The translations under genes were made by a program, and so were the position numbers. The notes below the pieces were generated by a model, which ran no database searches, was not told where the DNA came from, and saw nothing but the letters and a program-made list of their open reading frames with translations. Positions 8,763 to 10,931 of a stretch of DNA of 19,784 nucleotides are shown piece by piece (within the stretch, counting starts at the first letter, position 1; each line of letters opens with the position of its first letter). The DNA lies in the IMG/VR virus record IMGVR_UViG_2690316049_000007, positions 1-19,784 of that record. One strand, 5' to 3'. Source of the DNA: a virus. Lineage: Duplodnaviria; Heunggongvirae; Uroviricota; Caudoviricetes.

Positions 8763-9041
8763 TCAGGCCTCGAAGAATTCGCCGTTCTTCGGGGCTTTTT
8801 CTTTTGTCAGCATTCTGGCTACTTTCTTAGCCAGTTCCGCCAACTCCTCGTCTTCAACACCCCATTCAAGAACAGCCAGAAGCATTCCCATTTTGGGGAT
8901 GAAGCTGTCTTTCCATCGCGAAATTTGCGATTCATTAATCCCTAACGCGTCGGCAACCTTTCGCTGACCACGTACAGCAATTCGATTCAGGATGTTGCTT
9001 GTAATTGCATTCGCTTTCTTGCGAGTACTTGTAAGTTCCAT
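8763..9041 (-). CDS. cII: CII-type transcriptional activator (P22 c1 / lambda cII homolog)
   Basis: ...ESQISRWKDSFIPKMGMLLAVLEWGVEDEELAELAKKVARML matches the lambda CII core (SQISRWK...IPKFSMLLAVLEWGV) as recalled. Start at ATG 9041 with AAGGA upstream; the longer ORF start at 9128 is probably spurious. Confidence 0.85.
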   Translation of the reverse strand: MELTSTRKKANAITSNILNRIAVRGQRKVADALGINESQISRWKDSFIPKMGMLLAVLEWGVEDEELAELAKKVARMLTKEKAPKNGEFFEA

Positions 9042-9098
9042 ATGTAAGTATTTCCTTAACAAATAAGAAGTTATGCGCATCAACTTATGTGCGTTGTA

Positions 9099-9142
9099 TT
9101 CCCGCATTTCGGCGGGAATGAGGACCATGACTGTTAAAGAGC
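9099..9142 (-). promoter_or_regulatory. nutR: boxA (GCTCTTTAACA) plus boxB hairpin
   Basis: Minus strand boxA GCTCTTTAACA (9142-9132), spacer, hairpin TTCCCGC-CGAAAT-GCGGGAA (9118-9099), just after the cro stop. Same boxA and the same hairpin core recur after pL (nutL). Confidence 0.65.
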
Positions 9143-9149
9143 AATTTGC

Positions 9150-9335
9150 TTATGCCGCTTTGCGGTAAGCGCTTTCTTGATACTTCAGGGCGCCAGCTGT
9201 AACGACTTCCAGTCGATAGGCGTCTTTCTCTGGGATGACTTCCTTCCACTGAGAGACTGCTGCGTCGCTAATGCCTAACGCTTTAGCTACAGCACGCTGG
9301 GTTCCGAAGTGGTCGATAACATCTTTCTTGTACAT
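9150..9335 (-). CDS. cro: Cro repressor, P22 type (61 aa)
   Basis: MYKKDVIDHFGTQRAVAKALGISDAAVSQWKEVIPEKDAYRLEVVTAGALKYQ... matches P22 Cro as recalled. Divergent from c2 across the operator region. Confidence 0.9.
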   Translation of the reverse strand: MYKKDVIDHFGTQRAVAKALGISDAAVSQWKEVIPEKDAYRLEVVTAGALKYQESAYRKAA

Positions 9336-9349
9336 AGACTCGCTCCGAA

Positions 9350-9415
9350 ATTAAAGAACACTTAAATTATCCACTAAAGGAATCTTAAGTCAAGTTTATT
9401 TAAGATGTCTTAACT
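9350..9415. promoter_or_regulatory. OR region: three 18-bp P22-type operators with divergent pR and pRM
   Basis: ATTAAAGAACACTTAAAT (9350-9367), ACTAAAGGAATCTTAAGT (9373-9390), ATTTAAGATGTCTTAACT (9398-9415), all fitting ANTNAAG-N4-CTTNANT. pR on minus strand: -35 TTGACT (9393-9388), -10 GATAAT (9371-9366). Confidence 0.8.
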
Positions 9416-10066
9416 ATGAAAACTCAATTGATGGGAGAGCGCATTCGCGCTCGGAGAAAAGAACTCAAGATCAGGCAGGCCGCACTTGGAAAGATGGTCG
9501 GCGTGTCTAATGTTGCCATATCTCAGTGGGAACGCTCTGAGACAGAGCCAAATGGAGAGAATCTTCTCGCCCTGGCTAATGCGTTGAAGTGTTCCCCTGA
9601 CTATCTGATGAAAGGAGAGGAAAGTCTTTCAAACATTGCCTATCACAGTAGGCATGATCCAAGAGGGTCATACCCTCTGATTAGCTGGGTGAGCGCAGGA
9701 TGCTGGATGGAAGCTGTAGAACCATATCATAAGCGTGCAATAGATAACTGGTACGATACAACCGTAGACTGTTCAGAAGATTCGTTTTGGTTGGACGTGA
9801 AGGGAGACTCAATGACGGCTCCGGCCGGTCTCAGTATCCCTGAAGGAATGATAATACTCGTCGATCCTGAAGTAGAGCCGCGTAACGGGAAACTGGTAGT
9901 TGCAAAGCTCGAAGGAGAAAACGAGGCAACTTTCAAGAAGTTAGTTATTGATGCAGGCAGGAAGTTTCTAAAACCACTTAACCCACAATATCCGATGATC
10001 GAGATCAACGGAAACTGCAAAATCATCGGCGTAGTTGTCGATGCAAAACTAGCAAACCTTCCATAA
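9416..10066 (+). CDS. c2: Prophage repressor, P22 C2 type (216 aa; HTH N-domain, LexA/S24-like C-domain)
   Basis: MKTQLMGERIRARRKELKIRQAALGKMVGVSNVAISQWERSETEPNGENLLALANALKCSPDYL... and C-terminal ...DSMTAPAGLSIPEGMIILVDPE...KLANLP match P22 c2 repressor as recalled. Confidence 0.95.
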   Translation: MKTQLMGERIRARRKELKIRQAALGKMVGVSNVAISQWERSETEPNGENLLALANALKCSPDYLMKGEESLSNIAYHSRHDPRGSYPLISWVSAGCWMEAVEPYHKRAIDNWYDTTVDCSEDSFWLDVKGDSMTAPAGLSIPEGMIILVDPEVEPRNGKLVVAKLEGENEATFKKLVIDAGRKFLKPLNPQYPMIEINGNCKIIGVVVDAKLANLP

Positions 10067-10067
10067 T

Positions 10068-10089
10068 GGGGCATTCGCCCCTTTTTTTT
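10068..10089 (+). terminator. Rho-independent terminator immediately after c2
   Basis: GGGGC-ATTC-GCCCC followed by TTTTTTTT (10082-10089). Confidence 0.7.
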
Positions 10090-10102
10090 ATTTCCTTTAA
10101 AA

Positions 10103-10186
10103 ATCAAAGACAAACTTAAGTTACGAAAGAAAATTTAAGTTTTCTTCAAAAATGCTCTTGACCATTAATTAAAGAGATCTTAAATT
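10103..10186 (+). promoter_or_regulatory. OL operators and pL promoter
   Basis: 18-bp operators ATTAAAGAGATCTTAAAT (10168-10185) and ATTTAAGTTTTCTTCAAA (10133-10150), plus a degenerate third (10103-10121). -35 TTGACC (10158-10163), 17-bp spacer, -10 TAAATT (10181-10186). Confidence 0.7.
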
Positions 10187-10232
10187 TAAGCCATCAGCAG
10201 GACGCTGGAAGCCAAAAGGAACAGATTGGCAG

Positions 10233-10273
10233 GCTCTTTAACATTGATGGGATTGTCCCGCCGAAATGCGGGA
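10233..10273 (+). promoter_or_regulatory. nutL: boxA (GCTCTTTAACA) plus boxB hairpin
   Basis: GCTCTTTAACA (10233-10243), 12-nt spacer, TCCCGC-CGAAAT-GCGGGA (10256-10273); same hairpin as nutR. Confidence 0.65.
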
Positions 10274-10631
10274 ACTGAGTTTAACCAAACAGGAGGTGCC
10301 GTAATGGTGCACTAACGCGGTTAGACCGCAGCCGAAAGGCAATGCAGCAGTAATGATGCTGCCCCGAGTCGCGTAATGGCGAGCAGGTTTAGCAGACCGA
10401 TGTGAGGGTAAATAAGGGAACATGCTCCGGAAAGGCAGCGCGAATGCCAGACGCGCACCGGTTATCAGCGGCTAATAAGCGACAGAGACTCAAGGGCATG
10501 AGCGCGCTCACTGCGAGAGTGTGAGTCAAAGAGTAGTTGGCTTTGGGGTGACGTGAAGTGCAGCTGCACGACGGCAACCGGAAGATAAGCGCCCGGCGCG
10601 TCACCGCCAAAGTCAATCATCGGAGGTCAAC

Positions 10632-10931
10632 ATGACAGTAGTCATTACATATCTGGCTGACGATAACGCCAGAAATCGCCGCAGAGCACGCAGACAGGCT
10701 CAACGTGAACAGGCAATGCAAGAGCAGCGACTGGCACGAAAAATTGCGCTAAAGCTCTCTGGTTGCGTCAGAGCAGATAAAGCAGCATCACTCGGAAGCC
10801 TTCGCTGCAAGAAGGCAGATGAAGTCGAGCGTAAACAGAACCGTATTTACTACCGCAAGCCACGCAGTGAAATGGGTGTGACTTGTGTTGGTCGCCAGAA
10901 AATGAAATTAGGCAGCAAACCACTTATTTGA
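10632..10931 (+). CDS. N: Antitermination protein N (lambda-N family; Arg-rich motif)
   Basis: N-terminal Arg-rich motif NARNRRRARRQAQREQ. C-terminus RKQNRIYYRKPRSEMGVTCVGRQKMKLGSKPLI parallels the lambda N C-terminus as recalled. RBS GGAGG before ATG. Confidence 0.85.
   Translation: MTVVITYLADDNARNRRRARRQAQREQAMQEQRLARKIALKLSGCVRADKAASLGSLRCKKADEVERKQNRIYYRKPRSEMGVTCVGRQKMKLGSKPLI

Follow-up and report, generated by a model that had tools for sequence, protein, structure and literature searches.

Mosaic lambdoid lysis/lysogeny control region with a probable structured-RNA insert in an Escherichia coli prophage

Overview

The early regions of P22-like phages are highly mosaic, and their N proteins vary in the N-terminal specificity segment (PMC2629481). 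The locus described here is positions 8763–10931 of a 19,784-nt stretch of viral DNA (IMG/VR record IMGVR_UViG_2690316049_000007, positions 1–19,784), referred to as the window. It is very probably a lysis/lysogeny control core, built as a mosaic lambdoid switch and carrying an accessory RNA insert. Its closest relatives are the P22-like Lederbergvirus phages IME10, N7, CUS-3, Gally, and JEP4, which are 98.9–99.2% identical to it in nucleotides over cII-cro-c2-OL-nutL and N and have the same genes, operators, and boxB. The 251-nt insert is absent from the N leader in all five records. Their replication and nin modules differ from those of the window, and N7 has a different O and an ATP-binding loader.

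P22 immC and phage 21 share the c2 helix-turn-helix, OR1, and boxA (GCTCTTTAAC) with the window. They differ from it in the boxB of both nut sites and in the arginine-rich motif (ARM) of N, and the window cII is unlike that of phage 21. Lambda N and its nut sites follow the same logic, with an arginine-rich N-terminus, boxA and boxB in both leaders, and a long hairpin before N. The C-terminal 35 residues of the window N are 57% identical to lambda N, with no nucleotide similarity. The ARM reads NARNRRRARRQAQREQ in the window and QTRRRERRAEKQAQW in lambda, and boxB is a 6-nt CGAAAU loop on a 6-bp G+C stem in the window versus GCCCU-GAAAA-AGGGC in lambda.

Mosaic structure of the control core

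The window was compared by megablast with 50,697 phage records. None covered ≥80% of it; the best single record, IME10, covered 61–64% at 97.7% identity. Blocks were compared with lambda, P22, phage 21, Sf6, IME10, and HK022 using local blastn, per-gene tblastn, and 50-nt sliding identity, and similarity to these phages turns on and off block by block (Table 1). An original prediction, made from the sequence without database searches, had proposed modular lambdoid mosaicism. The lack of any record at ≥80% coverage and the blockwise identities bear this out, and pairwise alignments showed no uniform similarity to one phage. Record coverage, blockwise blastn, and sliding identity rule out uniform descent from a single phage. 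The window is the reversed early/late region of an HK620/Sf6/IME10-like lambdoid E. coli prophage, with the gene order R, S, Q, nin, helicase, O, cII, cro, c2, N … attP, host cscB (open reading frame [ORF] listing and megablast).

Genes c1/cII, cro, c2, and N lie where they had been predicted. The cII protein is 87% identical to P22 C1, 98% to Sf6 and IME10, and 53% to lambda cII (tblastn), and by sliding identity it resembles P22, not phage 21. The listed ORF, which runs to 9128, extends cII upstream. Cro, transcribed divergently from OR, is 95% identical to P22 Cro and 97% to that of phage 21. The c2 protein is 97% identical to phage 21 cI (6 amino-acid differences), 92% to P22 C2 (17 differences), and 35% to lambda (tblastn), and its helix-turn-helix, residues 17–53, is identical in the window, P22, and 21. 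Pfam families and these identities agree with the proposed P22-type c2 and cro, although both proteins are nearer phage 21. Nucleotide identity of the immunity block is 87% to phage 21 and 82% to P22.

Operators were scanned with the 18-bp pattern ATTTAAGNNNNCTTAAAT, allowing ≤3 mismatches (P22 symmetry ATTTAAG-N4-CTTAAAT). There are five matches, all next to c2: a cluster of three on its cro side and a cluster of two beyond its other end. By chance, 1.27 matches were expected, and five were reached in 1 of 200 shuffles. Six operators had been proposed; the sixth, OL3, amounts to no more than a half-site, and the phage 21 annotation likewise shows it as one. OR is nearly base-for-base that of P22 and 21, with OR1 identical and OR2 and OR3 differing by 1–2 bases. 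A C2-type repressor, P22_Cro, and 18-bp operators (OL3 as a half-site) place the region in the immC class. Because c2 residues 17–53 are identical in all three phages, the same operator specificity is expected, and we infer that the window phage would be homoimmune with P22 and 21. The shared immunity specificity of 21 and P22 comes from the lambda-P22 hybrid literature; a literature check gave no confirmation of it. C2 and Cro would contend for operators with P22/phage-21 specificity, three at OR and two to three at OL, and C1/CII would activate repressor establishment.

The phage 21 record (OL657228) annotates cI (14256–14906) as 190 aa. Its open frame gives 216 aa, colinear with P22 C2 and the window c2, which suggests that the annotated start was placed downstream of the true one.

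N had been said to follow lambda closely, and this did not hold. No lambda blastn match lies within 9059–11419, tblastn aligned only the C-terminal 35% of the window N to lambda N, and the ARM and boxB are different, so a lambda-type N was rejected. N is 70% identical to phage 21 N over its full length and 98% identical to IME10 N (tblastn). Pfam N_peptide scored 20 bits, below its 27.9 cut-off. In protein alignments read by eye, N is a three-part mosaic of HK620/21 type. Residues 1–32 include the ARM (residues 11–27) and are common to the HK620-type N of HK140, mEp213, and N7; residues 33–62 match phage 21 N; and the C-terminus is 21/lambda-type. HK140 and mEp213 join a P22-type C-terminus to the same ARM.

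The two nut sites are similar over 44 nt and have in common the boxB UCCCGC-CGAAAU-GCGGGA, which differs from the boxB of lambda, P22, and 21. The nutR stretch is unlike P22 (48–59% identity) and 21 (40–46%). An arginine-rich N-terminus, boxA-boxB in both early leaders, and matching boxB hairpins are the general features of an N/nut system, and N and boxB are probably a cognate pair. N would antiterminate the pL and pR transcripts via its own boxB hairpin, identical in nutL and nutR. Relative to phage 21, the immunity block is kept and three small specificity patches (boxB-R, boxB-L, and ARM) are replaced. The N Shine-Dalgarno (SD) sequence, GGAGG (10622–10626), directly follows the N-leader hairpin, which may be an RNase III-type site, presumably like the one before lambda N.

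The 50-nt sliding comparison placed breakpoints at ~8725, ~9047, ~9137, and 10235–10250. Junctions had been predicted near nutL and between the initiator and cII, and were found at 10249–10250 and ~8719–8725. Those at ~9047 (cII start/tR1) and ~9137 (cro end/nutR) had not been predicted. P22 similarity begins at 8719–8725, at a 33-bp island (8721–8753) that in isolation matches lambda and phage 21 at 93.9%. The island falls inside a stretch 98.9% identical to Sf6 and is close to boundary sequence bsq5 annotated in the Sf6 record. P22- and 21-like similarity both stop at 10249–10250, between nutL boxA and boxB.

The core is best read as the product of recombination between lambdoid phages at short conserved linkers. 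These would be the cII-O linker, the tR1/nutR region, and boxA. The result would be a P22-like cII, a 21/P22-type cro-c2-operator block, and an N of mixed relatives, set among lambda-like nin/S/R genes, a 21-type Q, and an HK022/Sf6-type O/DnaB replication pair.

The structured-RNA insert

The insert lies between nutL boxB and the N-leader hairpin, inside the region covered by the original prediction, which missed it. Phages N7 and HK140 join the base at 10275 straight to that at 10527, so the insert is an exact 251-bp indel. Members of its family are ~240 nt long and consist of an SD sequence, AUG, 0–2 further codons, and a stop, followed by ≥9 helices. Aligned members have stems of variable length between invariant junction motifs. 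The mini-ORF was found in 105 of 115 distinct 5′ ends: an SD sequence is followed by ATG, or in rare cases TTG, and the frame closes after one to three codons, exceptionally six. Its stop is 1–8 nt before the first helix and a conserved fold of ~215 nt follows; the peptide is not conserved.

Covariation was assessed in 46 viral sequences with a hand-built 10-helix structure. Pairing was kept in 92.6% of cells, versus 30–36% with the partner slid, and 26 pairs had changed on both sides, which none of 500 shuffles reached. A covariance model built from these sequences found exactly one copy in the window (10278–10534, 238 bits) and recovered all 57 of 57 independent genome copies. In the model-fitted alignment of the latter, 97.4% of cells were paired and 24 of 39 pairs had changed on both sides. 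No coding signature was found in the family (no shared open frame and no 3-periodicity), and gap runs are mostly of lengths that are not multiples of 3; a protein-coding remnant was rejected on these grounds. RothC ORFs annotated over the element are on the opposite strand. Compensatory changes without a coding signature are what is generally expected of a conserved structured RNA.

Rfam 15 gave no match at gathering scores over the window. At E≤10, its 4227 families gave only two chance small nucleolar RNA matches (E>5) in 10150–10700. Mimicry of the 5S rRNA loop E by the 3′ hairpin loop (UGCGAGAGU) was considered and dropped; the loop is not conserved among members. No description of the element was found in the literature searched. 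The Pas small RNAs described in a preprint are different, shorter RNAs near Q. The RNA family is apparently undescribed.

By blastn, homologues are 99% identical in mEp213, 88% in Stx2c phages, and 77–83% in phages of Hafnia, Klebsiella, Providencia, and E. coli. Most of these records have no gene annotated over the element. A scan with one 24-nt conserved pattern found it in at least 120 IMG/VR contigs and in 57 species-representative genomes, nearly all Enterobacterales. It is present in 112 of 5426 complete E. coli genomes, almost always without a gene annotated over it. E. coli strain 222, for example, carries a 100% copy. The element is conserved at 71–88% identity across genera, with unrelated flanks. 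nhmmer and the covariance model found no second copy in the window and none in the lambda, P22, and 21 regions or the Sf6, IME10, HK022, N7, and HK140 loci compared. IME10 carries a different 168-bp leader instead.

The orientation is always that of the operon. Three contexts were seen: nutL, element, N; Q, terminator, element, then tRNAs or lysis genes; and lysis genes, element, HNH/terminase. Clustering and PHROGs place at least 25 copies behind genes of two Q-like families and at least 24 behind genes for CI-like repressors; others follow Rz. On the downstream side, the element is followed by genes for N-like proteins, a holin, or a TerB-like moron, or by unknown genes. Which gene comes next is not fixed, and it lies anywhere from 55 to about 400 nt away. 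A tRNA follows the element in only 6 of 187 copies, and association with tRNA genes was set aside as weak. In mEp213 (1255–3012), the pL operon has two N-like genes, the second of HK620 type, and the element separates them, immediately ahead of that second gene.

Possible role of the insert

From its position, we infer that the insert would be transcribed within the antiterminated pL transcript and would act as RNA. Our preferred guess, held with less than even confidence, is a processed accessory RNA that acts in trans, with its 5′ end protected or folded with ribosome help. A ribosome loaded on the mini-ORF would stabilize the processed phage RNA or help it to fold. The anatomy would be that of a ribosome-loading mini-ORF abutting a conserved fold, in a cassette just behind the antitermination sites. 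The cassette appears dispensable because near-identical phages lack it.

The chances are about even that the element represents an undescribed class of Enterobacterales phage RNA, defined by an SD sequence and a 1–3-codon "start-stop" mini-ORF, and carried as a mobile cassette in promoter-proximal leaders of antiterminated operons (after nutL, Q/tR′, and lysis genes). In that case, the element would be an accessory RNA that engages ribosomes, stabilized and trans-acting, or acting on translation, Rho, or RNA decay of a host or phage transcript.

Alternative explanations

It is hardly credible that the immunity core is instead a diverged P22 immC, inherited vertically and strictly P22-type, with no recombined 21-like block. 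The P22 similarity does run from cII to nutL boxA in one high-scoring segment pair (8719–10249, 81.8%) and the gene order is that of P22, but cro-OR-c2-OL is nearer phage 21 (87.2% in nucleotides; 6 versus 17 amino-acid differences in c2), cII resembles that of P22 rather than that of 21, neither phage matches the nutR/boxB and N ARM segments, and the flanking O, helicase, and N are unrelated to P22 genes. This block pattern in blastn and sliding identity refutes it. No evidence contradicts a mosaic. Mosaicism depends on which references are chosen, near-identical whole prophages are possible in unsampled genomes, and E. coli 55989 matches 8700–11500 at 99.3%, in two pieces. Several points also weigh against the reading of the insert as a functional RNA. 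The covariation test on 57 copies used a model-fitted alignment, which favors the structure. The fold of the single sequence is no more stable than that of shuffles (z = −1.3 and −1.0), so support for the structure is comparative, not thermodynamic. A pseudoknot-type helix (148–150 with 198–200 in A2) is only 72.5% paired in the 46 viral sequences. Any role given to the RNA is a proposal only, and the element is dispensable, being absent from near-identical phages.

The same observations bear on what else the insert could be. A cis-acting element, either a put/EAR-like antitermination RNA or an anti-Rho/anti-polarity device with a ribosome loaded on the mini-ORF, is possible but doubtful. The constant orientation would suit it, as would the usual position directly behind the sites that set up antitermination: at least 24 copies follow a CI-like repressor gene (pL leader) and at least 25 follow Q-like genes, often past a terminator-like hairpin, and the aligned element has no terminator of its own. 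However, these phages already encode N or Q, copies also occur after Rz and ahead of HNH/terminase genes, neither the downstream gene nor its distance (55 to about 400 nt) is fixed, near-identical phages lack the element, and at ~240 nt it is far from the ~70 nt of put. A small mobile ribozyme entering transcribed leaders, such as a minimal group-I-like intron or another self-processing RNA, is very unlikely. It would explain exact presence or absence at one point, several GNRA-type loops with invariant junctions, nearby HNH/homing endonuclease genes in some contexts, and a length of 251 nt within the size range of minimal group I introns. Against it, no Rfam intron or ribozyme model matched even at E≤10, no conserved exon context is present, the U(−1)/terminal-G signature is not unambiguous at the junction, and the mini-ORF has no place in such a model; a group I intron was rejected for want of a model match and of exon logic. 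Inert filler, either a decayed gene fragment or a scar of illegitimate recombination, is very unlikely indeed. Absence from N7, HK140, and IME10, an unremarkable single-sequence fold, and the lack of an Rfam match would fit it, but not 71–88% conservation across genera between unrelated flanks, invariant junction motifs with variable stems, compensatory changes in 24–26 pairs, a conserved SD-AUG-stop with a peptide that is not conserved, or a family that lacks both an open frame and 3-periodicity and whose indels do not come in multiples of 3.

Features and neighboring genes

Table 1. Coordinates of features and similarity blocks in the window (aa, amino acids)
Feature	Position	Strand	Details
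R	1–477	−
S	461–784	−
Q	1298–1816	−
Helicase, 826 aa	5235–7715	−
Intein, 343 aa	6003–7031	−	Splits helicase Walker A motif GARPKMGK/TTL
O-like initiator	7690–8580	−
33-bp conserved linker	8721–8753		Left junction of P22-like block; between cII and initiator gene
c1/cII activator, 92 aa	8763–9041	−	Pfam Phage_CII, E=1e-42
oop-like terminator	8765–8797	opposite to cII	Terminator scan
nutR	9099–9142	−	boxA GCTCTTTAAC 9133–9142; boxB UUCCCGC-CGAAAU-GCGGGAA 9099–9118; sequence and fold
cro, 61 aa	9150–9335	−	P22_Cro, PF14549, E=9e-28
OR1	9350–9367		Operator pattern match
OR2	9373–9390		Operator pattern match
OR3	9398–9415		Operator pattern match
pR	9393→9366	−	TTGACT-16-GATAAT; promoter consensus scan
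c2 repressor, 216 aa	9416–10066	+	Pfam HTH_3 and Peptidase_S24
c2 terminator	10068–10081		Consensus scan
OL3	about 10114–10131		Half-site only
OL2	10133–10150		Operator pattern match
OL1	10168–10185		Operator pattern match
pL	10158–10186	+	TTGACC-17-TAAATT; promoter consensus scan
nutL	10233–10273	+	boxA GCTCTTTAAC 10233–10242; boxB UCCCGC-CGAAAU-GCGGGA 10256–10273
Structured-RNA element, 251 nt, with mini-ORF	10276–10526	+	Between nutL boxB and N-leader hairpin
Insert SD	10291–10296	+	AGGAGG
Insert mini-ORF	10304–10315	+	AUG GUG CAC UAA
Insert helix P1	10317–10329
Insert helix P3	10344–10362
Insert helix P4	10369–10382
Insert helix P7	10427–10430 with 10458–10461
Insert helix P8	10438–10442 with 10452–10456
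Insert CUCA/UGAG	10489–10502
Insert 3′ hairpin	10507–10525
N-leader hairpin, ~20 bp	10536–10617	+	Fold −44.5 kcal/mol, z = −3.64, 0/200 shuffles as stable
N, 99 aa	10632–10931	+
Early-left genes	after N to attP-like end ~18497	+
Lambda match	1–1033		S, R; 96.8% (blastn)
Lambda match	1814–3405		ninI-H-G-F; 97.9% (blastn)
Lambda match	3821–4136		blastn
Lambda match	4718–5236		ninB; 98.3% (blastn)
Lambda match	11420–11558		139-bp terminator island (blastn)
Lambda match	within 16269–18166		Three short islands of 67–115 bp (blastn)
Lambda unmatched	immunity region and N		blastn
P22 match	8719–10249		81.8%, among other matches; N unmatched (blastn)
Phage 21 match	1276–1829		Q; 84.5% (blastn)
Phage 21 match	9130–10250		87.2%; cII unmatched (blastn)
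Phage 21 match	10538–10942		N; 81.4% (blastn)
Sf6, IME10, HK022 match	O/helicase pair		blastn

The nin genes and S/R had been predicted to be close to lambda, and their nucleotide identity to it is 96.8–98.3%. Protein identity is 99% for R and S, 95–100% for ninB, E, G, H, and I, 88% for ninF, and 83% for the ninD-like orf63. Genes unlike those of lambda lie scattered between them. One gene among the nin genes (4131–4721, − strand) encodes an MT-A70-family DNA methyltransferase and has no counterpart in lambda, P22, 21, Sf6, IME10, or HK022.

Q had been assigned to an 82/21 family. The relation to 21 stood (85% protein identity over 94% of length; PF06530); the Q proteins of 82 and 21 are separate families. 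Q had no match in lambda or P22 and is 99% identical to Sf6 Q; in the Sf6 record, the late promoter is described as almost the same as the phage 21 one. By these matches, Q is classed as phage 21-type. Between tR′ and S, a 266-bp stretch (~1025–1290, − strand) is unrelated to Sf6 and 21, which carry tRNA-Asn and tRNA-Thr there. It includes parts that look like a tRNA acceptor, D-arm, and T-arm (GGTTCGATTCC), together with a long insertion. ARAGORN called no tRNA in it at default settings and gave only a dubious intron-containing call at relaxed thresholds.

The helicase has the DnaB N-terminal (PF00772) and C-terminal (Walker A, PF03796) domains, and its exteins are 100% identical to the Sf6, IME10, and HK022 helicases. 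No match to lambda P was found in the window. On domain content, the helicase is classed as DnaB-type (P22 gp12/HK022 gp55 class) and not as a lambda P loader, in agreement with the original prediction, which did not mention the interrupting intein. The intein sits between GARPKMGK and TTLYS and ends THN/T (His-Asn, then Thr). It matches the gp41-1 and DnaB inteins and the LAGLIDADG domain of PI-SceI, and contains a LAGLIDADG homing-endonuclease domain. Hint-domain blocks, the C-terminal His-Asn followed by Thr, and a site in a conserved host motif class it as an intein. An N-terminal Ala fits a class 3 intein, and this intein may belong to that class on account of its N-terminal Ala. None of the 50,697 phage records contains the helicase intein. 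Of 5426 complete E. coli genomes, 17 do. At these loci, PGAP names only DnaB N-terminal- or C-terminal-domain proteins and mentions no intein.

Beyond N, a 139-bp island (11420–11558) with a terminator-like hairpin is 94–100% identical in lambda, 21, Sf6, IME10, HK022, N7, HK140, and mEp213, although its flanks are unrelated. It corresponds to the Sf6 boundary sequence bsq4 and would appear to be a linker for recombination. The first gene after N, orf156 (10940–11410, + strand), and orf182 (15096–15644, + strand) have no match in the six reference phages, and orf156 has no Pfam family. Similarity to Sf6 and IME10 ends at ~18497, the position of the Sf6 attP core. Beyond this attP-like end is the 3′ part of a LacY/CscB-type sugar permease gene (18939–19784, − strand). 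The window thus extends past the end of the prophage into host DNA; the integrase is on the opposite side.

Significance

Judged by its sequence, the mosaic is a known and ordinary pattern, with the same immunity block 99% identical in IME10, N7, CUS-3, Gally, and JEP4. It adds nothing new, being textbook modular exchange with an immunity block already sequenced at 99% identity. It does illustrate that the parts of N specificity (ARM, boxB-L, and boxB-R) move as three small patches and that the immunity block they surround is of a different lineage. An intein such as that in the helicase is rarely seen in E. coli prophages.

Within 8763–10931, the structured RNA and its mini-ORF are of greatest interest. 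As a rule, large structured RNAs whose junctions are invariant either have a specific binding partner or catalyze a reaction. This one could matter more than the mosaic, being widespread in temperate enteric phages, including Stx2c phages, yet unannotated. Coupling to a mini-ORF is an unusual architecture for a structured RNA. Because the insert lies in the best-studied regulatory leaders, its function is directly testable with isogenic phages with and without the element.

Comparison with known systems

The bar minigenes of lambda, SD-AUG-AUA-UAA in the pL operon, resemble the insert in having a ribosome-binding site and a 1–3-codon ORF inside a lambdoid pL transcript. Unlike the insert, they are not known to be attached to a conserved multi-helix RNA. 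If the insert does engage ribosomes as proposed, it would provide a natural context for the long-unexplained bar phenomenon. HK022 put, at ~70 nt, folds into two hairpins and is not known to have a mini-ORF, whereas the large prophage-associated noncoding RNAs ROOL and GOLLD measure 500–800 nt. Like the insert, all three are phage or prophage structured RNAs with no protein product that lie in operon leaders or beside tRNAs.

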